Origin: a phage
Sequence record: NC_135729.1
Direction: 5' to 3' (one strand)
DNA length: 64,000 nt
Part shown: positions 9,244 through 54,305 of the stretch, one piece after another
Layout of the letters: the number at the start of each line of letters is the position of its first letter
Position numbering within the stretch: the stretch's first letter is position 1
The notes under the pieces: generated by a model
Told to the model about the DNA's origin: nothing
The model's input: the letters and a program-made list of their open reading frames with translations, nothing else
Database searches by the model: none
Program-made: the position numbers and the translations under genes

Positions 9244-9320
9244 TGGTCTCCACGGAGTGATTCGAACACTCGACCTCCTGATCCCAAATCAGGCGCTCTA
9301 CCAAGCTGAGCTACGCGGAG
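9244..9320 (-). tRNA. tRNA-Pro (anticodon UGG)
   Basis: Cloverleaf read by eye on minus strand; anticodon loop UUUGGGA; T-loop TTCGAAT; C1:G72 pair; CCA encoded. Confidence 0.8.
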
Positions 9321-9331
9321 TATCTACTATT

Positions 9332-9406
9332 TGGTGGCCCTGGGTGGAATTGAACCACCGTCTGGCGATTATGAGTCGCTTGCTTGAACCTTCCAGCTAC
9401 AGGGCC
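9332..9406 (-). tRNA. tRNA-Met (anticodon CAU; could be Ile2/lysidine type)
   Basis: Acceptor GGCCCTG/CAGGGCC; anticodon loop CTCATAA; T-arm GGTGG-TTCAATT-CCACC; CCA encoded. Confidence 0.7.
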
Positions 9407-9407
9407 A

Positions 9408-9483
9408 TGGTGCTGATGGCAGGACTTGAACCCGCAACCTATTGATTACAAATCAATTGCACTACCAATTGTGCTACATCAGC
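9408..9483 (-). tRNA. tRNA-Thr (anticodon UGU)
   Basis: Acceptor GCTGATG/CATCAGC; D-arm GCAC-AATTGGTA-GTGC; anticodon loop TTTGTAA; CCA encoded. Confidence 0.8.
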
Positions 9484-9488
9484 AAAAA

Positions 9489-9587
9489 GGTGCTAGGCGG
9501 TGGAATCGAACCACCTATGTATTCAACGACTACCTCGTCTATTTTCAGGATTAAAAATCCTCGCCCTTGCCAAAGGGCTTACCTAGC
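9489..9587 (-). tRNA. atypical tRNA-like element (99 nt; candidate anticodon UUU)
   Basis: Canonical acceptor, D-arm, anticodon-like hairpin and T-arm (GGTGG-TTCGATT-CCACC), but about 29 nt separate anticodon stem and T-stem; ends in CC not CCA. Confidence 0.35.
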
Positions 9588-9685
9588 TCAATATGTTGAC
9601 CATGTTGCTAGTCGGCGATGACGACTGTAACATTTGATAATCCGGTTCTGCTTCCGGCTTTCGCTTAATTGCAAGGTCAACAATG

Positions 9686-9776
9686 TGGCGGAGAGTAATG
9701 GAATCGAACCATCATCGAGTCATCCTCAACGGGACGGTTTTCAAGACCGCTTGAGCACCATTGCTCCCTACCCTCC
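9686..9776 (-). tRNA. tRNA-Ser (anticodon UGA), type II
   Basis: Acceptor GGAGGGT/ACTCTCC; anticodon loop CTTGAAA; long variable arm; 91 nt; CCA encoded. Confidence 0.7.
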
Positions 9777-9891
9777 TTTATAAATTATACTGATAATGAC
9801 ACTGATTTTCGAGCAGTTAGTGACTAGTATAAACGACGATAAATATCAATGCCATTATCTGTATTATTTATGCATCTAAAAAATATAAATT

Positions 9892-9978
9892 TGGTGGGGA
9901 GTGGTGGAGTCGAACCACCCGAGTCGCAATGACAATAGATTTACAGTCTACACCGCTACCTCTACGGGATAACTCCCC
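9892..9978 (-). tRNA. tRNA-Tyr (anticodon GUA), type II
   Basis: Acceptor GGGGAGT/ACTCCCC; anticodon loop CTGTAAA; T-arm GGTGG-TTCGACT-CCACC; 87 nt; CCA encoded. Confidence 0.75.
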
Positions 9979-9982
9979 AATT

Positions 9983-10057
9983 TGGCACCCCGTACTGGAC
10001 TCGAACCAGTGTCAACGGCTTAGAAGGCCGCTGCTTTATCCACTAAGCTAACAGGGC
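9983..10057 (-). tRNA. tRNA-Arg (anticodon UCU)
   Basis: D-arm GCTT-AGTGGATA-AAGC; anticodon loop CTTCTAA; T-arm ACTGG-TTCGAGT-CCAGT; CCA encoded. Confidence 0.75.
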
Positions 10058-11145: not shown

Positions 11146-11355
11146 TCAACAGATTCCGGCCTTATCCTTCCTGTCTGCGTATTCTTTAATCGCAACCTCA
11201 TCTGCATTAGTGACCAGGTATTCAAAGTAACTCTCAAGCTCCTCGTCAATGTCAGGAGACCAGCTCTTTTTCCTGTCAGTGTGAATTGCAGACTTGTTGA
11301 ACTTATTACAGTTCTTTGCTACCGGGTTGTTCATTAAGCGCTCCTCAGCGTTCAT
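11146..11355 (-). CDS. hypothetical protein
   Basis: 69-aa ORF overlapping the upstream gene end by 11 nt. Confidence 0.35.
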   Translation of the reverse strand: MNAEERLMNNPVAKNCNKFNKSAIHTDRKKSWSPDIDEELESYFEYLVTNADEVAIKEYADRKDKAGIC

Positions 11356-11923
11356 AGTAAATTTTATTTAACATTACCTCATCCTTTGCAGAAAGGATAT
11401 CTAGATATGCATCACCGAATCTACCTGCAACAACCTCTGCATGATACATCACTTCGTTAATATCGTCAAGAGTGATAACTGGATGACCGTATCTCTCTGA
11501 GTATTGTCTCAGAGTGCGATGTAGGGAGTCATCATCATAGGCAGACTTTTTAATATCGCAAACACGACGAATAGCCTTGATGTCGAAAAACCCTGTACGA
11601 TACCAACCAAGAAAAAGGTTTCGTGCAGTGTCAACATCTACATCAATACCATTAAGAACCTTATCTACAAGATAGCTGTCATCCTTTGGACCAGCTTCCT
11701 TAGTGCGAATGTAGTTGCCATCTTTTCCAGGTGACATCTCCTTCTCATCACCAACCTGCATGCCATCATTTGGCGGTGTTAGCCACTTATCCGGATGCTT
11801 ACGATCACGAGCGTTAGAATGATTACGCTGGAAACCAGGCTTCCACTTGAAAGTTTTCTCCATCTGTTCTTCATTCTGATAACGTTTTGCAATCTTTTCA
11901 CGGTCATCTTTGCGTGAACCCAT
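11345..11923 (-). CDS. hypothetical protein
   Basis: 192-aa ORF with GAGGAGG Shine-Dalgarno before ATG. Confidence 0.45.
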   Translation of the reverse strand: MGSRKDDREKIAKRYQNEEQMEKTFKWKPGFQRNHSNARDRKHPDKWLTPPNDGMQVGDEKEMSPGKDGNYIRTKEAGPKDDSYLVDKVLNGIDVDVDTARNLFLGWYRTGFFDIKAIRRVCDIKKSAYDDDSLHRTLRQYSERYGHPVITLDDINEVMYHAEVVAGRFGDAYLDILSAKDEVMLNKIYYER

Positions 11924-12039
11924 AGCTGCCTCCTCTTCAAGTTATAGAAAAACTCACTGTATCACTTTGTAACGAGCTTTTCTATCAAACTGGTGCGATT
12001 GCATTACCTGGTATAGTTCATATAGCTGTGGAGCGATTT

Positions 12040-12290
12040 AGGGGCCTTCTTGTCAGTTTCCACACATAAACTTCATCCAAGCTCGCGCGGGAGACTCTCA
12101 ACCGACTCCTTACGGCGCTGGCAAGCTTTCGTCGGTGGTCCACATCAGTGCTCGGCCTTTGGCCTGCGCTATCGCTTCGCTCCCACACATGTTAACAGAC
12201 CTGCATGTATGCACTTCTGTTATTGTGTGCACCAAGGAGGCCCGGCATCTCGCCCCTCGTAGGCGAGTGCCAATGAAGGGCCGACACTAC
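12040..12290. other. GC-rich structured island (candidate ncRNA or DNA structural element)
   Basis: About 250 bp much more GC-rich than flanks; many local hairpins; distal segments GGGGCCTTCTTG and CAAGGAGGCCC are complementary; track ORF 12050-12262 has no RBS. Confidence 0.3.
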
Positions 12291-12426
12291 CTATAGTAAG
12301 TAATAATTTTAAAACATGGTACTTAGGATCTAGTATATTCTACATAAGTTAAGTATATGTACTTAGTACCATAAGTACTAGATCTTTTATTTTTTATTAT
12401 TTAGTTATTTTAGTTATATTCTTTAT

Positions 12427-12509
12427 GTGTCCGTATCACGGACAGTTAGTGTCCGTATTACGGGCAGATGTGTCCGCGTGACGGACAGTAGTGTCCGTAT
12501 CACGGGCAG
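12427..12509. repeat. four tandem 19-bp iterons with internal dyad (GTGTCCGTATCACGGACAG-like), about 21-bp spacing
   Basis: Units start at 12427, 12449, 12470, 12491; each holds the inverted repeat TGTCCGT..ACGGACA. Confidence 0.7.
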
Positions 12510-12583
12510 TTACTGACCTCTGTTCCAGAGCGAACATAAAACATACGAATCCTTATAGTACAGATATTTAAGTTTTTACTGGT

Positions 12584-12934
12584 CTAACCAGTTGTTGACA
12601 TTCGAATAACCTCTTCTGGTGGCAAAACTTTGGAAAATGTACATCTTTTACCTCTCCCTTGTGTGGATATTTCAACCACTCCTGCACATTCTAAAGTTTT
12701 AACGCACGCTGCTGCTTTTGTTTTCTTTATCCCAACATCTGCTGCAATTTTCCTTGTGCTTGGTGTGAAGCGTGAATTTCCTCCAAGCTTATACCAGTTG
12801 TGCAGGTAGCAGTATACGATCTTGTCATATAAGTCAAGAACAACAGCCTCCCCAGTTGTGTCATTCAAAACTTTTGACATAGACAGTATTTCAAGGGGGA
12901 CTTTAAGATATAGCAGCTTATCCCCATCTTTCAT
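12584..12934 (-). CDS. putative winged-helix DNA-binding protein
   Basis: 116 aa; helix-turn-helix-like segment STRKIAADVGIKKTKAAACVKTLECAGVV; lies next to the iteron array. Confidence 0.4.
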   Translation of the reverse strand: MKDGDKLLYLKVPLEILSMSKVLNDTTGEAVVLDLYDKIVYCYLHNWYKLGGNSRFTPSTRKIAADVGIKKTKAAACVKTLECAGVVEISTQGRGKRCTFSKVLPPEEVIRMSTTG

Positions 12935-12981
12935 ATCTCCTGATTCTCCTTGTGTGGCAATTTTCTTTAAAATAGCAGGGA

Positions 12982-13536
12982 TTACTCCCCGCTGTCAATA
13001 GCAAGACTCATTGCAATACGGTATGCCTCTTCTAATGGTAAGAGTCTCCCCCACACATCCCAACCGACATCAAACTGCCTGCCAAACAACTGCTGTGTGG
13101 TTCCGTGAGCATGACCGAACAGTTGGACTGATCCGTGAGGCTTTCTGTTCCACTTTGCAAACTGGTAATGGCTCATACAGATCAAATTCTTGTTGTGGCG
13201 AAGCTCGTAATAATCTACAACCTCATGACCGAACTCTTTCATAATTCTGACAGTCGTCCTTGTGTCATGGTTACCACGAACAAGAATAATATGTCCGTTC
13301 AACATATTTAGAACATCTGGGAGCAATTTGTTGATATTCTTATCATTAGTGCACGCAATATCTCCCAAGTGAAACACAGTGTCTGCAGGTGACACAACAG
13401 AGTTCCACTCGGCGATGATTCCCGCATTCATACTGTCAAGATTGTGATCATACTGAGATCTGTGTTTTTGACATGAATCAAACTCCATGACCCGCTGGTG
13501 GAGAAAGTGTGTGTCGCTTGTTACAAAGTATTTCAT
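12982..13536 (-). CDS. calcineurin-like metallophosphoesterase
   Basis: Motifs SDTHF, GDIACT, GNHD, HAHG; start set at ATG 13536 with GAGGAA. Confidence 0.6.
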   Translation of the reverse strand: MKYFVTSDTHFLHQRVMEFDSCQKHRSQYDHNLDSMNAGIIAEWNSVVSPADTVFHLGDIACTNDKNINKLLPDVLNMLNGHIILVRGNHDTRTTVRIMKEFGHEVVDYYELRHNKNLICMSHYQFAKWNRKPHGSVQLFGHAHGTTQQLFGRQFDVGWDVWGRLLPLEEAYRIAMSLAIDSGE

Positions 13537-13543
13537 ACATTCC

Positions 13544-13953
13544 TCATTTAAGTTTAATGCAGTTTTTAAGCTGGCGTTCCATACGATCCACAACCTTGTC
13601 TGGAACATCATGAATGCTTTTATTACCGTGGCGGTTTTCAACCACGATCACGGTATAACTATACCCGTGACTGATTGCCATGTCAACATATTCCTGCACA
13701 TGTTTTTCTTTTGTAAACGTATTACTTACCACGATACGGTCGTATCCCGTACGCATCATATCTTCTACGTTATCTTTGCACCATTTTGCTGCGAGTGTTA
13801 CTTTACTTGCATCCCAGTTGTAATTGCCGTCATCGTCATACCAGAACATGTCGTTCTCAAAATGTGGATACAGACCTTCTAAAGATAGCGCATTTGCCAG
13901 TGTTGATTTGCCAGACCCTGGCAGACCACGCACGATATATAGCATTTTAGACA
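13544..13953 (-). CDS. P-loop kinase (polynucleotide 5'-kinase-like)
   Basis: Walker A GLPGSGKST eight residues from N-terminus, as in the T4 Pnk kinase domain; start at ATG 13953 with GGAGG. Confidence 0.5.
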
Positions 13954-13982
13954 TAGCAACCCTCCGTTTTAATTTTAATGAT

Positions 13983-14011
13983 AGTATACCTAACTGTTTT
14001 GTTAATTTCAA
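13983..14011 (-). promoter_or_regulatory. sigma70-like promoter for the kinase/phosphoesterase operon
   Basis: TTGAAA - 17 nt - TATACT on minus strand. Confidence 0.5.
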
Positions 14012-14014
14012 GTG

Positions 14015-14045
14015 TTGACACTAGGTTATTTGTGTGGCATGATAG
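14015..14045 (+). promoter_or_regulatory. sigma70-like promoter heading the plus-strand block
   Basis: GTTGACA - 18 nt - ATGATA; the -35 context is shared by other plus-strand promoters. Confidence 0.45.
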
Positions 14046-14072
14046 ACTGACAAAATGACAAATGAGGAACGT

Positions 14073-14990
14073 ATGATGAAGTATTTTAATGCAGATGACC
14101 TAGTAGACAAAGGTCTTGTAACCAGTCGGTATTATCCAGATCTTGGATTAAAGATCTATAAATATGCCAGAAAAGTATTCTACAACAATCTGTGGCATTT
14201 GTCTCCGCGTTTACTGGAGTGCCGAGGTATTGTTGTTGGCAATGAGGGGAATGTTGTGGCATGGCCTTTCACAAAAGTATTCAACTTAGGAGAAAACTCC
14301 ACCAACCTACCGGACAGTAAACTTGTTACTGCGGTAGAGAAAAAGAACGGATTCCTCGGTGTGGTATCATCTCATAAAGGTGAACTATTGTTCTCAACAA
14401 CCGGGTCTCTTGATTCTCCATATTGTAACCTTGCAAAGGAAACCATCCAAGAGCAATGTGGTAATTTAGATCTTATCAAGAAGGTTATGGGCAATGAAAA
14501 CATGACATTCATGTTTGAAATTTGTCACCCTTCAGATCCGCATATTGTTCAGGAAGATCATGGCGCATATTTGATAGGTTGCAGATATAATGATTCTGGA
14601 ATAATGCTACCAGAAGCAGCTTTAGATGGGATTGCCAAATACCTTGGTGCAAAACGTCCTCACACTGTGCGTGAAATTCCGTTCAGCTATGCAAAAGAAT
14701 TAGCTGCAGAAACAAGAGGTGAAGGGTATATGATTCGTAAGCCTTACTACCCTTATGATCTGCAGCTGAAGATCAAGTCTCCATACTATCTGGCACGGAA
14801 GGCCGTAATGAGGGGTAAAGCTTGGAAGATTTGGGATGATGATATCTTTAAACGTGTTGACGAAGAGTTTTACGGCATGGTAAACTTCATTCGTAGCAAT
14901 TACACAGAGGATGTGTGGAACTGCCTCCTGGAGCAGGAACGCCGTGAGATACTTGATTACTATTTCCACAACGAGAACTATATGCAATGA
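14073..14990 (+). CDS. RNA ligase (Rnl1/Trl1-type nucleotidyltransferase)
   Basis: Motif I KKNG (KxNG), motif IV EGYMIRK, motif V LKIKS; start at ATG 14073 with GAGGAA. Confidence 0.55.
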   Translation: MMKYFNADDLVDKGLVTSRYYPDLGLKIYKYARKVFYNNLWHLSPRLLECRGIVVGNEGNVVAWPFTKVFNLGENSTNLPDSKLVTAVEKKNGFLGVVSSHKGELLFSTTGSLDSPYCNLAKETIQEQCGNLDLIKKVMGNENMTFMFEICHPSDPHIVQEDHGAYLIGCRYNDSGIMLPEAALDGIAKYLGAKRPHTVREIPFSYAKELAAETRGEGYMIRKPYYPYDLQLKIKSPYYLARKAVMRGKAWKIWDDDIFKRVDEEFYGMVNFIRSNYTEDVWNCLLEQERREILDYYFHNENYMQ

Positions 14991-50939: not shown

Positions 50940-50963
50940 CAAAATATCAAATTTAAGACACCT

Positions 50964-50990
50964 AGGACGCTCTGTGGCGTCCTTTTCTTT
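50964..50990 (+). terminator. rho-independent terminator
   Basis: AGGACGC-tctgtg-GCGTCCT followed by TTTCTTT. Confidence 0.55.
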
Positions 50991-51154
50991 ATCTGGTGCA
51001 CGATTGCATACCTTGGGTAGTTAATCTCATTACAGAGCGTTTAAGAGCTCCCTACAAACAACTCCATATTTCGAGCGTAGCGAGAACGCACGTCCGTTTT
51101 GACCCAAATCACCATACGCTCGGATTTTAACCAAACCCTCGCGGCGTTTCTGTT

Positions 51155-51183
51155 GACACATTGCCGCTCCAGTGATAGTATCC
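51155..51183 (+). promoter_or_regulatory. sigma70-like promoter
   Basis: TTGACA - 17 nt - TAGTAT upstream of small ORFs. Confidence 0.45.
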
Positions 51184-51201
51184 ACACATCGTTTGGAGAA
51201 T

Positions 51202-51303
51202 ATGGAATACACAATGAAAACATTGTCAGAGGTTTTGGTGGTGATCCTGATGATCATTACGTCCATAGTGGCTGTTGCCGGAATACTCACGGGTGGAACA
51301 TGA
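51202..51303 (+). CDS. small membrane peptide (33 aa)
   Basis: GGAGA Shine-Dalgarno; hydrophobic LVVILMIITSIVAVAGIL; below ORF-track size cutoff. Confidence 0.3.
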   Translation: MEYTMKTLSEVLVVILMIITSIVAVAGILTGGT

Positions 51304-51512
51304 TAAACACACATGCATCTGAAGAGACATCCAAAGGAGTGACTATATGTCCCTTGACTGAGCCAGTGCAAGAGGAAAACTTCGATTCTGAAGATTCTCC
51401 ATCTTCGCTCCAGGTAGACCCTGAGGCTGATGACCTAACGTGGGAAGACATCGTAGATATCTGGTTCTCTATTATGCCTGAGCACGAAGAGTTCAGAGGT
51501 GGTAGACTATGA
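51300..51512 (+). CDS. small acidic protein
   Basis: ATG after GGGTGG; 70 aa. Confidence 0.35.
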   Translation: MINTHASEETSKGVTICPLTEPVQEENFDSEDSPSSLQVDPEADDLTWEDIVDIWFSIMPEHEEFRGGRL

Positions 51513-51632
51513 AGCACCGAGCCCACACAGGTTCCTCATGCTAAAGCATGGCCTGAAGAGGCAAACGTGCATAATTCCAGTGCATTGGAACATATAAACC
51601 CTGTTCACATTCTCATTTCCAGAGGAGATTTC

Positions 51633-51848
51633 ATGAAGATAGAAATATTTGGTGGAGCTGACAACACTCGTGGCCTGATTTACCTTGAATTCGATGAATC
51701 ATACCTGCCAGAGGTGTTAAATATAGACTCTGTTGCTGAGGCTTTGGGAGTAAGTCCTAAAGATCTCTACTCTGGTGCTGAGATTGATGGTTGGGAGGAG
51801 ACCATGAACATTGATTTCAGTGAAGTAGGTGATGAACCACTGGACTGA
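51633..51848 (+). CDS. small acidic protein
   Basis: ATG after AGAGGAGA; last plus-strand gene before the non-coding region. Confidence 0.4.
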   Translation: MKIEIFGGADNTRGLIYLEFDESYLPEVLNIDSVAEALGVSPKDLYSGAEIDGWEETMNIDFSEVGDEPLD

Positions 51849-52023
51849 CACACAATTAGCTACCCGGCTAAAGTGCTGGGAGCACCTATAACACATCTTT
51901 CAACTAAATTTCCTACCACCACAATCACTTACCTCCCACACATGACTGTTTGCTTGTTTAGTGAGCAGTCATGCCTTGACATTCTTGCCTATCCTGATAA
52001 AATTAAGTTCTTCTCTTTTCTTT

Positions 52024-52050
52024 TACCGAGTAATTCGGGTTTTCTGTTCT
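52024..52050 (+). terminator. putative terminator closing the plus-strand block
   Basis: CCGAG-taat-TCGGG followed by TTTTCTGTTCTCTT. Confidence 0.35.
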
Positions 52051-53381
52051 CTTCGGTTTGAAGGGGTATAGAGATACACCTGAGTGAACAGGGTGAACAA
52101 CCGAACCATTAGCTATGGCATTAGCATGGCGAAGCGGACGGGTGACGAAAGAGGGGCCGGAGGACACCAGTCACTGCCATATGATATATGGGTGATAACC
52201 TGAAGAGTCTGAATAAGTGTTTAAGTACCAGTCAGAGGAAAAGGTGAATGGTAGCCGAAGGGGGGAGGGGGGTTTCTTGTATCTTTAATTTGTATATTAT
52301 GTATACACTTGTAAACCAATCTAATCTGAATCTGTTTACCACGCAAAGCGGATAGAGACAAATATTGCCTATTAAACTTGAATTATTTATAGAAAATACC
52401 ACAACACCCCTTAAGTCTTTGATTTTACACACAAATCCTACAGATATTCAACCTCCATATTTAACATACTTGTAACATATTCCATACTCTACCTGTCTGA
52501 TCAACTCACCCAACTACATCCTCCATATTTCCCCTGTCTGTACTACCCCTGCCCCGCCTGGAGTCCCGTCATATCTGGCTTTCCAGCAAATATCCCACCC
52601 ACAAATATCATTGCCTGAAGAGGGTTTCCTCCCATAATACATGCCTTACCTGAAGAGCGCTTCATATACCCCGTAAATTTTTTAATTGACACCCTCCCCG
52701 CCGCCGGAGGGGGTTGGCTTTTCCCACACAGACCTGAAGAGCCAGCCAGAAATATCTGAACAGGTCCAGTTATACCACGATTTTGACCTGACCGACAGGA
52801 GTGCTGCCAGGCGGACGAAATGGGAATACTTCTCATTCTTATAACAATTCTCAAATATCGAGGCAGTGAGGCAAATTAATAGGTGAGGCCGTTCACATAG
52901 TGGCACAACATTTGCAATCTATTTTGTGTGGGGAATGAGAATACATATCATTGTGAGAACCATTATCATTACGGGCAATTTAACATAATACCCATTATGC
53001 GCACCACTGGCGATCCATACAGGGATTGATAACATGAGTTACTGTTTACACACATAACAATTATATTTCTTACTATTTGTGTGGGATATAGTTAGCAGCC
53101 GATAGATTAGATATTGACCTGTGGACTTCCAACAGTCTAGACGTCTAAGCGCCCACACAACAAGGCTTATACATACACAACTGAATGTAAACAGGGCCGC
53201 AAAAATGCTACCATACCAGCTTGTAAATTTTTCATACAGCACTTGACAAAGAGGAGAAAAACTTGTCTGACACTTTAGACACCTTTGACACACTGGGCAT
53301 ACTAAACACTGGATATAATAACAATTGTTACTATTGCATGCCTCACTGTTCACGTATAGACTATTTGCTCAAAAATTATAA

Positions 53382-53669
53382 GCCATGCCATTCGTTTGCA
53401 TGATAACGATTAGCAAGTTAATAATCTTTCACTGGCTATGCCAGGTGACCTTTGGTCACCCCTTCGGGTGTTTCTATGACATAATATAAAAGCAGGGCAA
53501 CTATTAGAAGATCTATAGTTGCCTTGCTTGTTATGTCATGATTAACTAAATACAAGGCAACTATGATCTGATTAATAGTTTGCAGGCAAACTATCACGGG
53601 GGTGATGGTTACTGCTTTTATATTATGTCGCGACTCCGTCGCGCCATGCCATTCGTTTGCATAGTTGCC
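53382..53669. repeat. iteron / inverted-repeat array (GGCAACTAT x6, 18-bp inverted repeat, 20-bp direct repeat)
   Basis: GGCAACTAT at 53496, 53556, 53585 (GGCAAACTAT) and inverted at 53515, 53575, 53661; inverted repeat 53478-53495 / 53612-53629; direct repeat GCCATGCCATTCGTTTGCAT at 53382 and 53643. Confidence 0.7.
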
Positions 53670-54278
53670 TTATTGTTACAGGTAAAATAATCACATTATT
53701 AATTATTTCTTATCTTTCTCTTAGTCATCTAATGATTCCAGTCAGTATAGTAATGTACAGTAGACATTAGACGACTAAAGATTTCTCTGTTTATGATAAC
53801 TCATCGTGATAATTTCGGACTGTTTACGAAAAATGTTGACACCTGAGCTGATTTATGTTATGCAGTTTACACGAATAATTATTTTATGCAGGTATTGACT
53901 ATTCCGTTATTCTGTGGTTGGAATAAATACTTTGCAGGCTATAGAATGGCGTGCGTACGTGAATTCTTAGATCTGGCGGCTATAGTTATACTCGATTTTT
54001 CGCGTAGGACACGCTTTCTATGTTGTGTAAGTGTATGACTTATAAAGATTTTTAGTTGTTGACAAGATATTGGAGATGTGCATCAGGTTAAAATTTGTGC
54101 AATAGCGGCATTACGTGCACTTTTGGGAGAGAAAACGGGTAAAAATGGCCCTGCTACCACACAGTGAAAGATTATGCAATAGTTATTTTATATGTATATT
54201 TGTACAGTGTGTGGGATTAATGGCTAGTCAATTATTCCACTTGCCGGGTAGGGCCGTTTATGGTAGGAGAAGAGCAGA

Positions 54279-54305
54279 CAAAAAGAAAGGGGCCTTTAAG
54301 CCCCT
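54279..54305 (-). terminator. rho-independent terminator closing the minus-strand block
   Basis: AGGGGCC-tttaa-GCCCCT stem followed on minus strand by TTTCTTTTT. Confidence 0.55.

Follow-up and report, generated by a model that had tools for sequence, protein, structure and literature searches.

A Replaceable Iteron Cassette and a Structured GC-Rich Island Shared with Circular Plasmids in an Intergenic Region of a Vequintavirus

Organization of the Locus

The window, which is the whole stretch of 64,000 nucleotides of phage DNA analyzed here (NC_135729.1), belongs to Vequintavirus (rV5-like phages) and is 99.4% identical to phage PDX. The 138-kb genome of PDX was used as the whole-genome reference for the extremes of base composition and for the uniqueness of dyads. 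The interval under study lies between two genes for proteins of 192 aa and 116 aa. The features on the 192-aa gene side, with the strand where one is assigned, are as follows.

11345-11923, minus strand: gene for a 192-aa protein (PHROG 12226), confined to the genus; 67% of substitutions are synonymous
11944-11985: 12-nt inverted repeat (I6; 92% complementarity), immediately before the ribosome-binding site of the 192-aa gene
11990-12018: box CTGGTGCGATTGCATTACCTGGTATAGTT; a similar box lies at 50976-51005 of the window, and it is inverted in the plasmids described below (12289-12308 in plasmid L004)

By sequence comparison, the interval is two separate functional units, a GC-rich island (12040-12295) and a cassette (12286-12971). 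They are arranged without gaps: the iterons of the cassette touch the lowest-GC 125 bp, which touches the highest-GC 250 bp (57%).

ARAGORN detected neither tRNA nor tmRNA in the interval, and no sigma-70-like promoter was found between the two flanking genes on either strand. Two promoter-like strings were discarded. The extended -10 promoter guess TGGTATAGT (12009-12017, plus strand) is not kept in several phages or in L009, a related metagenomic contig. A string resembling a T7 promoter (minus strand, ~12288-12310; 16 of 23 matches) was put down to chance; it falls within the swapped cassette, and no single-subunit RNA polymerase is known in these phages. In the preliminary description, made from the letters of the window, neither the separateness of the island from the iteron cassette nor its presence in satellite-like plasmids had been noticed.

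The Iteron Cassette

The cassette contains the following features.

12286-12971: replaceable cassette, composed of the AT-rich stretch, the iterons, the winged-helix gene and its promoter; homology with L009 ends at 12285 and resumes at 12972
12296-12424: AT-rich stretch, candidate DNA-unwinding element; 20% GC, highly conserved (pi 0.017)
12316-12384: interlocked palindromes, including two GATC sites
12427-12509: four iterons with the 7-3-7 dyad TGTCCGyrTnACGGrCA (17 bp), spaced 21-22 bp
12512-12545: decayed fifth iteron unit, hypervariable (pi 0.20 versus 0.016 in the iterons), its variants still iteron-like
12584-12934, minus strand: gene for a 116-aa winged-helix protein (rV5 gp075), presumed to bind the iterons; PHROG 12838 at 1.4e-79
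12969-12998, minus strand: sigma-70-like promoter upstream of the winged-helix gene, TTGACA-18-TATTTT after TG, 10 of 12 matches; it corresponds to P76 in the rV5 record

The AT-rich stretch with interlocking palindromes is confirmed. No other 125-bp segment of the window or of the entire PDX genome is as poor in GC (~19-20%); the next lowest has 24.8%. The arms ATGGTACTTAG (12316) and CTTAGTACCAT (12362) interlock with the arms GATCTAGTA (12327) and TACTAGATC (12376). A T-rich tract at 12385-12424 abuts the first iteron. The candidate origin has no exact DnaA box and one single-mismatch site, against 0.8 expected, and the IHF consensus is absent from it. The assignment of CCCACACA, a motif of the island, as DnaA boxes was unsupported by this count of DnaA sites against chance.

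The four iterons of about 19 bp at a spacing of about 21 bp, each with its own dyad, are present as first described. They start at 12427, 12449, 12470 and 12491 (spacing of 22, 21 and 21 bp), with dyads at 12428-12444, 12450-12466, 12471-12487 and 12492-12508. They are above chance: the pattern TGTCCGN5CGGRCA with at most one mismatch gave eight strand-hits, all in the array, while 0.16 are expected in 64 kb. The dyad pattern is absent elsewhere in the 138-kb PDX genome. Close relatives keep the repeats in 2, 3, 4 or 6 copies, in units of 21-22 bp. Another AT-rich non-coding region of the window contains a second iteron-like cluster, GGCAACTAT, at 53487-53680.

The helix-turn-helix-like segment noticed in the adjacent gene belongs to a winged-helix protein, based on profile, PDB and model matches. 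In Pfam, the protein scores 24.5 bits for HTH_36 (PF13730; E 2.3e-5), slightly under the gathering cut-off of 25 bits, and 24 bits for DUF6945. PF13730 is given in the precomputed annotation of a 97%-identical cluster, and distant relatives match HTH_36 clearly. PDB entry 4RO3 is matched at E 5.5e-6. The structure model has winged-helix secondary structure with a pLDDT of only 59, and this poor model ruled out a fold search. HTH_36/DUF6945 is a DNA-binding domain family found also in Rep-like proteins. No match to Phage_rep_O was obtained in Pfam; the protein has a single winged-helix domain and no helicase-recruiting part. Few homologues were found, and 59% of the substitutions in the gene are synonymous. 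In most records the protein is called a "putative transcriptional regulator", and the label "replication initiation protein" comes solely from a PHROG name. The proposed adjacency of iterons and gene holds. As the gene is on the minus strand, however, the array is located 3' of it, 75 bp downstream of the stop codon, and not at its promoter.

In contig L009/L016, both flanks of the cassette are kept, at 83% and 89% identity, and the cassette is replaced with a different 853-bp segment of the same layout. The winged-helix protein of L009 has 143 aa, is only 26% identical to that of the window (E 2e-6) and has no homologues in sequenced phages. Its dyad repeats are of the ATCTGATGCAAATATGTATC type, unlike the iterons of the window. 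The 192-aa gene is within the block homologous to L009 and is linked to the GC island despite the swap. The comparison of these two alleles supports that protein and repeats change together. The suggested link between protein and iterons is backed to this extent, by comparison of sequences.

The cassette could also be an operator array, a reading we consider unlikely. Here, a winged-helix transcription factor and the four dyads would govern a promoter located within the AT-rich stretch or close to it. The promoter would drive a minus-strand operon of the 192-aa gene, small genes and the tRNA cluster, and the island would be a structured 5' leader or an internal mRNA element. This is consistent with the minus-strand orientation of both flanking genes and of the downstream tRNA cluster, and with the regulator annotation in most records. 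A dimeric repressor would suit palindromic sites, and its exchange has a precedent, as repressor and operator are swapped together also in the immunity regions of lambdoid phages. Against it, the interval lacks a sigma-70-like promoter on either strand, and the dyads are found nowhere else in the genome and are 500 bp from the supposed target gene. The most extreme AT tract of the genome, beside the array, would be left unexplained.

The GC-Rich Island

The island includes the following features, none of which is assigned to a strand.

12026-12084: left, more variable part (pi 0.095), with a ATTTAGGGGCC motif common to the plasmids
12085-12145: module A, the conserved core common to the plasmids; helices P1 (12093-96/12137-40) and P2 (12101-06/12131-36)
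12147-12170: module B, hairpin AGUGC..GGCC-UUU-GGCC..GCGCU, present in predicted folds and conserved (pi 0.025)
12181-12232: variable hairpin starting with CCCACACA (inverted repeat I1)
12236-12288: module D, three-helix hairpin (12239-43/12278-82, 12244-47/12268-71 and 12249-54/12262-67)

The description of a GC-rich island of about 250 bp full of local hairpins proved correct. At 56-57% GC, the island is richer in GC than any other 250 bp of the genome, and on either strand its folding is more stable than that of shuffled sequence (z -2.6 and -2.7). Its ends had been described as complementary. GGCCUUC and GAAGGGCC indeed pair with a bulge in this sequence, but the pairing is unused in stable folds and is not kept in L009. 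A global fold was likewise rejected: its consensus shifts with the boundaries chosen, and L009 does not preserve the long-range helix GGAGCGA/TCGCTCC. Our claims are confined to the local helices.

Protein coding in the island, whether by rV5 ORF78 or by the small annotated ORFs, is excluded by the substitution pattern. The synonymous fraction is 0.18-0.29, compared with a neutral expectation of 0.22-0.26 and with 0.59 and 0.67 in the flanking genes.

The helix P2 of module A encloses an invariant loop of 24 nt. Four pairs of the module are changed on both sides, and 96.9% of the cells are paired; the observed values were reached in 0-4 of 500 shuffles. The lineages behind this covariation are few, namely the phage genus, L009 and a single family of plasmids. 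With the covariance model, each phage genome and each plasmid yields one copy of module A. On its own, the module is thermodynamically ordinary (z +0.4 to +1.3). Module D has the same minimum-energy fold in the phage and in plasmid L004 (-28.1 and -25.2 kcal/mol, z -3.7), with two compensatory pairs from G-C to U-A, one in each of two helices. Covariance analysis across homologues, proposed as a check, thus revealed compensatory stem changes in modules A and D. The mimicry of a CRISPR repeat by helix P2 was rejected by eye, since the loop spans 24 nt and the phage has a different stem.

In four phages, one of them rV5, the variable hairpin has lost 18 nt; the deletion is flanked by 9-nt direct repeats, and the CACACA/TGTGTG base of the stem is kept. 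Both indels in the island are multiples of three, and the island ORFs are open in all 15 variants.

It is likely that the hairpins, not the duplex sequence, are under selection, and that the island acts as a single-stranded nucleic acid, either DNA or RNA. The structure part of the earlier structured-RNA suggestion stands, based on the compensatory changes and the exclusion of coding; RNA and single-stranded DNA are both possible. The assignment of a strand from G-U versus C-A pairs was abandoned, as the signals conflict. Helix P2 pairs 100% on the minus strand, in line with the leader of a minus-strand operon under an operator array; helix P1 fits the plus strand only, which is against it. 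In Rfam 15, only tRNAs pass in the window, and the best match in the region is rli43 (22.9 bits versus 100). Nor was there any Rfam match in the second non-coding region, plasmid L004 or L009.

Circular Plasmids Sharing the Island

Homologues of the island (~85% identity in module A) are present in circular E. coli "plasmids" of 13.2-13.9 kb, of the type of NZ_CP020521. Distant copies of module A were found only in Vequintavirus contigs and in this same plasmid family. The search yielded one hit in viral contigs and 87 in metagenomes, six of which are real (L015, L016, L019, L030, L032 and L038). All 22 hits in GTDB genomes were attributed to chance.

The plasmids encode capsid, tape-measure and baseplate-like proteins related to those of Vequintavirus, and no fuller virion set. 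These proteins are 48-54% identical to the PDX virion proteins, and the shared proteins overall are 25-54% identical. One criterion for satellites, a partial complement of virion genes that includes some homologues of helper virion proteins, applies to the plasmids. They look like phage satellites, a lifestyle that we infer from their sequences. No paper on Vequintavirus satellites, or on the cassette and island locus, was found in the literature.

The plasmids also encode an O-like Rep of 303 aa and have six 19-bp iterons at 23-bp spacing, located 550-800 bp beyond module A. The polarity of the element relative to the iterons is the same in phage and plasmids, and the minus-strand order of iterons, island, box and first gene is identical. 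This order would suit an operator array as well. The 192-aa gene is absent from the plasmids, however, and an operator array leaves unexplained why the island is beside their origin region. Since the plasmids replicate autonomously, their sole large non-coding region, which holds the island homologue, must contain an origin.

As an improbable alternative, the island would be an independent structured non-coding RNA that works in the interplay between helper and satellite, and its position beside iterons would be incidental. Such an RNA might have a regulatory or decoy role, its invariant 24-nt loop contacting either a shared protein or the RNA, homologous or complementary, of the other element. 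Covarying helices around an invariant loop are the usual signature of functional RNA. The single copy per genome, the separability of the island from the iteron cassette, and its ~85% nucleotide identity compared with 25-54% for the shared proteins also agree with this explanation. So do the extra hairpin modules in the plasmids, which are punctuated by CCCACACA. On the other hand, there is no recognizable promoter or terminator, conservation of the box upstream of the island is poor, Rfam gives no match, and the signals of P1 and P2 indicate no single strand. That the island keeps one polarity beside iterons in three independent contexts speaks against its position being incidental.

A packaging signal is very improbable. 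The island would be a pac-like site of the Vequintavirus terminase, and the 13-kb elements would be packaged in helper capsids, possibly as concatemers. The island is indeed the main nucleotide-level likeness between phage and plasmids. The plasmid annotation lists no terminase, and ten ORFs compared with PHROG gave no terminase match. One plasmid record is a trimer, and ten plasmid units are, arithmetically, about one helper genome length. Sites recognized as duplex, however, need no compensatory changes in stems, and a long distance separates the locus from the genes for the terminase and the structural proteins. Assembled genomes have no consistent end here: record starts are scattered, and the single break here is one of several permutations of identical length.

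A Candidate Replication Origin

The preferred reading, to which we assign a nearly even chance, is that the cassette is a theta origin in the style of lambda and iteron plasmids, with its origin-binding protein, plus an origin-proximal single-stranded element. The preliminary description had offered an origin with its initiator or an operator array. The origin gains support from the unique array, the adjoining AT extreme, the position relative to the GC skew, and the same layout in plasmids with an O-like Rep; the operator array also stands. The locus is 1.5-2 kb from the minimum of cumulative GC skew and from the point of transcription divergence, at ~14.0 kb. The skew is weak evidence for an origin, because it follows the direction of transcription in this genome. 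In the paper on rV5, a change in skew was reported at the same point as the skew minimum of the window, and the origin was not definable (PMC3606486). Against a canonical initiator stands the size of the protein, which is 116 aa with a single DNA-binding domain and no helicase-recruiting part. The second iteron-like cluster, at 53487-53680, could be the real origin or an additional one.

In the proposed mechanism, we infer protein binding, DNA unwinding, replication start and any transcript. Dimers of the winged-helix protein would bind the dyads, all on one face of the helix, given that 21-22 bp correspond to two helical turns. Cooperative binding to the iterons would distort the DNA and open the adjacent AT tract, allowing entry of the phage's own T7 gp4-like helicase-primase and polymerase; a gp4-like helicase-primase is encoded by the rV5-like phage (PMC3606486). 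The island would be an origin-proximal accessory, such as a signal for single-strand initiation or for loading of the helicase-primase, exposed after the AT tract opens. Alternatively, it may be a structured transcript directed into the origin. An accessory is suggested because the island has the same polarity to the AT-rich and iteron region in the phage, in the relative with the swapped cassette and in the plasmids. The plasmids would share the island through the use of the same phage factor.

The proposed origin resembles known systems in part. In ori-lambda, four dyad iterons of ~18-19 bp are bound by the dimeric winged-helix N-terminal domain of O, and a strand-biased AT-rich region is beside the array. 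Initiator and iteron specificity are exchanged together among lambdoid phages. The window likewise has four dyad iterons in tandem, a T-rich tract abutting them, as the composition indicates, and a cassette whose protein and repeats are exchanged together. Unlike lambda, this is a virulent phage, equipped with a gp4-like helicase-primase of its own (PMC3606486). The 116-aa protein, unlike lambda O, is not a Phage_rep_O protein and has no C-terminal domain recruiting a helicase loader. The iterons are outside and downstream of the gene, whereas ori-lambda is inside gene O.

The row of iterons, AT-rich stretch and GC-rich segment is also similar to iteron plasmids. The oriV of RK2 contains iterons, an AT-rich region and a GC-rich region. 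The oriV of the IncQ plasmid RSF1010 contains iterons and GC-rich and AT-rich segments, and its single-strand hairpins ssiA and ssiB, beside the opened region, are priming signals for the plasmid's own primase. The hairpin-rich GC island with covarying stems, beyond the AT tract, is comparable to those of IncQ, and by analogy alone it might serve in priming. There is no sequence similarity to iteron plasmids, and the repeats of the window are palindromic, not asymmetric direct repeats. Unlike RK2, pPS10, R6K and IncQ plasmids, the candidate origin has no DnaA boxes above chance and no IHF consensus. Its protein is a single winged helix, unlike RepC or the WH1-WH2 Rep of iteron plasmids, a tandem winged-helix protein that binds its asymmetric repeats as a monomer.

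Among phage satellites, the PLEs of Vibrio phage ICP1 have a RepA_N initiator and semi-palindromic iterons in a non-coding region and depend on the replisome of their helper, a virulent myovirus (PMC7145576). The polymerase of rV5 has ICP1 among its closest relatives (PMC3606486). The 13-kb plasmids are similar to PLEs in having their own Rep and iterons, together with homologues of Vequintavirus virion proteins, their link to a helper being putative. PLEs reside in the chromosome as islands and need the phage to replicate; the 13-kb elements, in contrast, are autonomous circular plasmids with capsid and tape-measure genes. No structured non-coding element shared between ICP1 and PLE was found in the parts of PMC7145576 consulted.

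The island, non-coding, hairpin-rich and a few kb from the tRNA cluster, is also reminiscent of the GOLLD and ROOL RNAs, which are found near tRNA genes. It is far smaller (~250 nt), and it has no Rfam 15 match in the phage, L009 or the plasmid. The conserved loops with covarying stems are similar to the kissing-loop antisense RNAs of plasmid copy control.

Implications

It is possible, though somewhat doubtful, that the island represents an undescribed class of structured single-stranded element. It would be a common "socket" for the phage replication or priming machinery, used by the virulent myovirus and by a family of 13-kb plasmid-borne satellites that is apparently undescribed as well, each with its own interchangeable specificity cassette of iterons and winged-helix protein. 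If so, the island would be a cis-acting element through which satellites exploit their helper.

The rV5-like phages are widely used for typing and therapy, and to our knowledge their replication origin has never been located. The locus described here provides a concrete origin candidate with a natural swap of specificity. If it contains only a regulator and its operators, it would still offer a well-defined repressor/operator pair in a group of phages for which hardly any regulation is known. If the plasmids are satellites of a virulent coliphage, they would constitute a new experimental system in phages compatible with E. coli K-12, and the structured element that they share with the phage would offer the first way into the question of how such satellites engage their helper.

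Genomic context of the interval

The phage is a Vequintavirus, an rV5-like myovirus. Over positions 11300-13700 it shares 99.4% identity with Escherichia phage PDX, and another 117 records match there at 90-99%. The interval lies between two minus-strand genes, for a winged-helix protein and a 192-aa protein. In 50,697 phage records, none of the three is found outside the genus Vequintavirus.

Genes around the interval
9244-10057, minus strand, cluster of seven tRNA genes, further along the strand with small genes
11923-11345, minus strand, gene for the 192-aa protein
12934-12584, minus strand, winged-helix gene (rV5 gp075), 116 aa
12998-12969, sigma-70-like promoter upstream of the winged-helix gene
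14055, divergent orientation, RNA ligase gene

Genes for a phosphoesterase and a polynucleotide-kinase-like ATPase are located upstream of the winged-helix gene. Positions 12982-14990 constitute an RNA-repair-type set (metallophosphoesterase, polynucleotide-kinase-like P-loop protein and divergent T4-type RNA ligase), 3-4 kb from the tRNA cluster. Inside that cluster is a 99-nt tRNA-like gene (9489-9587, minus strand), for which ARAGORN called a 4-base anticodon. It is annotated in relatives as tRNA-OTHER or tRNA-Lys, and is unreported by the Rfam tRNA model at the gathering threshold.

Eighteen UNVERIFIED records (MG0656xx, "Campylobacter phage ...") are 97-99% identical to E. coli Vequintavirus over the locus, and their host label is doubtful. 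CP057073.1, filed as an E. coli plasmid, is as large as a Vequintavirus genome (137,565 bp) and contains a 98.9% match to the GC island (12040-12295); it is probably a phage genome assembled together with its host.

The winged-helix protein

The gene at 12584-12934, previously noted for a helix-turn-helix-like segment, codes for a single winged-helix domain. Pfam scores are 24.5 bits for HTH_36 (cut-off 25) and 24 bits for DUF6945, and the match to PDB 4RO3, a hypothetical protein, has an E-value of 5.5e-6. The AlphaFold model shows the expected helices and wing with a pLDDT of only 59. Exhaustive searches turned up very few related proteins, the distant ones being larger HTH_36 proteins and a single GIY-YIG nuclease-DUF6945 fusion. 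The protein is annotated as either "putative transcriptional regulator" or "replication initiation protein", the latter being a PHROG family name and not an experimentally based label.

Iterons and the AT-rich stretch

The iterons and interlocking palindromes of the preliminary description are both real.

Elements between the GC island and the winged-helix gene
12296-12424, AT-rich stretch, 20% GC
12316/12362 and 12327/12376, interlocked palindromes, the second pair with two GATC sites
12427, 12449, 12470 and 12491, starts of four iterons, spaced by 22, 21 and 21 bp

Each iteron contains a 7-3-7 dyad, TGTCCGyrTnACGGrCA. Matches to this degenerate pattern are confined to the iteron array in the 64 kb, where 0.16 would be expected by chance, and in the complete 138,427-bp PDX genome. 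The AT-rich stretch is the lowest-GC 125-bp window of PDX (19.2%; next locus, 24.8%) and the GC island is its highest-GC 250-bp window (57.2%); thus, the two compositional extremes of the genome are adjacent.

Fifteen distinct versions of the interval were aligned. There are two iterons in phage navn, three in two sequences, six in O157 typing phage 14 and four in most; their number varies only by whole 21-22-bp units. Positions 12512-12545 are a decayed fifth unit and are hypervariable (nucleotide diversity pi 0.20). The iterons, together with the AT stretch and the central GC island, show the lowest diversity of the interval in related genomes (pi 0.016-0.029).

Iteron origins and regulator/operator cassettes are known kinds of elements. 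As the winged-helix gene is on the minus strand, the iterons lie downstream of it, away from its promoter. The main rival to an origin is that the protein is a regulator, as some annotations have it, and the iterons an operator array controlling the downstream minus-strand operon, with the GC island as a structured leader. This is considered rather unlikely.

On the minus strand at 12288-12310, AATTATTACTTACTATAGGTAGT agrees with the T7 class III promoter consensus at 16 of 23 positions, and its end coincides with the edge of the GC island. To our knowledge these phages have no phage RNA polymerase, and the sequence is not kept in a divergent Vequintavirus-like metagenomic contig (L009); the match is therefore judged to be chance.

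The GC island is non-coding and structured

Small ORFs in the island are annotated in several records (rV5 ORF78 and others) and are open in all variants. The synonymous fraction in every frame is 0.18-0.29, against a neutral expectation of 0.22-0.26, and is 0.59 and 0.67 in the flanking genes. Protein coding is thus ruled out. Both strands of the island give better folds than shuffled sequence (z about -2.6), and compensatory pairs in modules A and D bear out its hairpin-rich character. The complementary ends noted earlier are present, with a bulge only, but they are unused in stable folds and lost in the divergent relative. Global folds were unstable and no claim is made on them. The region shared with plasmids (see below) is modular.

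Modules of the GC island
12085-12145, module A, with invariant 24-nt loop TCCTTMCGGCGCTGGCAAGCTTTC
12186-12229, central hairpin, partly dispensable
12236-12288, module D, three-helix hairpin

Covariance analysis of module A with 10 distinct sequences revealed four pairs with two-sided changes, with 96.9% of cells paired. Only 0-4 of 500 shuffles reached the observed values, and sliding the 3' partners lowered pairing to 17-59%. Helix P2, around the loop, is ACCGAC/GUCGGU in phages and GCUGCC/GGCAGC in plasmids, so three of its six pairs have two-sided changes; among phages, an A-U, G-U, G-C series is seen in the outer helix P1. Module D has an identical fold in the phage and plasmid NZ_CP020521 (-28.1 and -25.2 kcal/mol, z -3.7) with two compensatory changes, G-C to U-A. 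The central hairpin lacks 18 nt in rV5 and three other phages, which retain the stem base.

P1 pairing fits the plus strand only (95% paired vs 65%), and P2 pairing fits the minus strand slightly better (100% vs 96.7%). Each phage genome and each plasmid has a single match to the module A covariance model, which finds none among the chance 18-mer hits from metagenomes and GTDB genomes. The island has no match in Rfam. A stand-alone RNA acting between helper and satellite would be structured and shared in this manner; it is judged improbable.

Exchange of the cassette

L009 (also L016; IMG/VR UViG_3300010279_000001) is one metagenomic phage contig from a more distant relative. It matches 11331-12285 at 83%, covering the 192-aa gene and the whole island through the end of module D, and resumes from 12972 at 89% in the phosphoesterase. 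Between these blocks is a different 853-bp segment (L009 1954-2806) with the same layout as in the window: a T-rich tract, then ATCTGATGCAAATATGTATC-type dyad repeats, four or more of them at 21-55 bp, and a 143-aa protein. The latter is distantly homologous to the window's winged-helix protein (26% identity, E 2e-6), has weak HTH_36/DUF6945 signals, and has no match in sequenced phages.

Such an arrangement shows that 12286-12971 (the cassette) is replaceable as a unit, its protein and repeats changing jointly, and that the island is a unit of its own. The joint change, seen in two alleles only, is the best available support for iteron binding by the winged-helix protein. Three unrelated iteron sets thus have the island as a neighbour, and the order never varies: a box (11990-12018 here), module A, further hairpins, and AT-rich or iteron DNA.

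Island homologues in 13-kb plasmids

Sensitive blastn against E. coli genomes and plasmids found island homologues, about 85% identical, in non-coding DNA of 13.2-13.7-kb circular plasmids (NZ_CP020521, NZ_CP178698, NZ_CP035869 and CP148565). NZ_CP043822 (39.6 kb) is a trimer with three island copies, and two metagenome contigs, of 13.9 and 15.5 kb, can be assigned to the same family. Its members (L004, which is NZ_CP020521.1, L005-L008, L030 and L038) are 13.2-13.9 kb, circular, non-mobilisable and from E. coli.

The plasmids code for major capsid, tape-measure and baseplate-like proteins related to Vequintavirus. Identity to proteins of the PDX virion-gene region is 52-54% for the baseplate-like protein and 48% for a neighbouring ORF. 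The plasmids are probably Vequintavirus satellites. Ten plasmid units approximate one helper genome length. A shared packaging signal would also place the island in both, and is highly improbable. The plasmids also encode a 303-aa winged-helix protein (the O-like Rep) with weak matches to "replication initiation O-like" PHROGs. Their repeat-rich non-coding DNA, about 2.9 kb long, has six iterons of 19 bp, CGGAAATATTTACCGGGGT, spaced by 23 bp, along with three AT-rich repeats of 36 nt. No paper on the plasmid family or the island was found in the searchable literature.

A second AT-rich region

Positions 50950-54300 (with islands to about 55650) form a second long ORF-poor region, which probably corresponds to the "non-coding" box in the rV5 paper. 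The region starts with a box resembling 11990-12018 and has many hairpins, with CCCACACA and CCTGAAGAG as recurring motifs. Among the lowest-GC loci of the genome, those ranked second and fifth fall within it. Similar sequence is found in 229 phage records, other genera included; Rfam gave no match. A 50-nt hairpin element, ACACCCGAAGGGGTGACC..GGTCACCTGGC.TAGCCAGTGAAAG, is 88% identical between 53425-53475 and L004 10884-10934, the latter in the linker-coding part of the O-like Rep gene. A second iteron-like cluster (53382-53680) has GGCAACTAT / ATAGTTGCC units in both orientations. Two perfect repeats frame the cluster, one direct and 20 nt long (53382, 53643), the other inverted and 18 nt long (53478/53612). 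It could be another origin or a partition-like site.

A candidate replication origin

A replication origin is the favoured, though tentative, reading of the cassette. The dyad iteron array at two-turn spacing is unique in the genome, and the most meltable DNA of the genome adjoins it. Protein and repeats are exchanged jointly, as in lambdoid O/ori modules, and the same architecture is present in plasmids that must hold their origin in that region. The cassette is also 1.5-2 kb from the cumulative GC-skew minimum and the transcription divergence point, the skew being confounded with transcription. The same skew change was reported for rV5, with no origin (PMC3606486).

Other weak points of the origin reading are that the winged-helix protein is too small for a complete initiator, that no host-factor sites are present in the interval, and that a second iteron-like cluster exists at 53.5 kb in the other AT-rich non-coding region.

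At such an origin, the island may act as single-stranded nucleic acid beside the opened DNA. Possible roles are a signal for priming or helicase loading, comparable to the IncQ oriV ssi hairpins, and a structured transcript that runs into the origin. The plasmids would share it because they use the same phage factor.

What is new here is that, in a virulent myovirus, palindromic iterons follow a minimal winged-helix gene on its downstream side. Of all the leads, the role of the island as an element common to a phage and to satellite-like plasmids is the most interesting and also the most uncertain.
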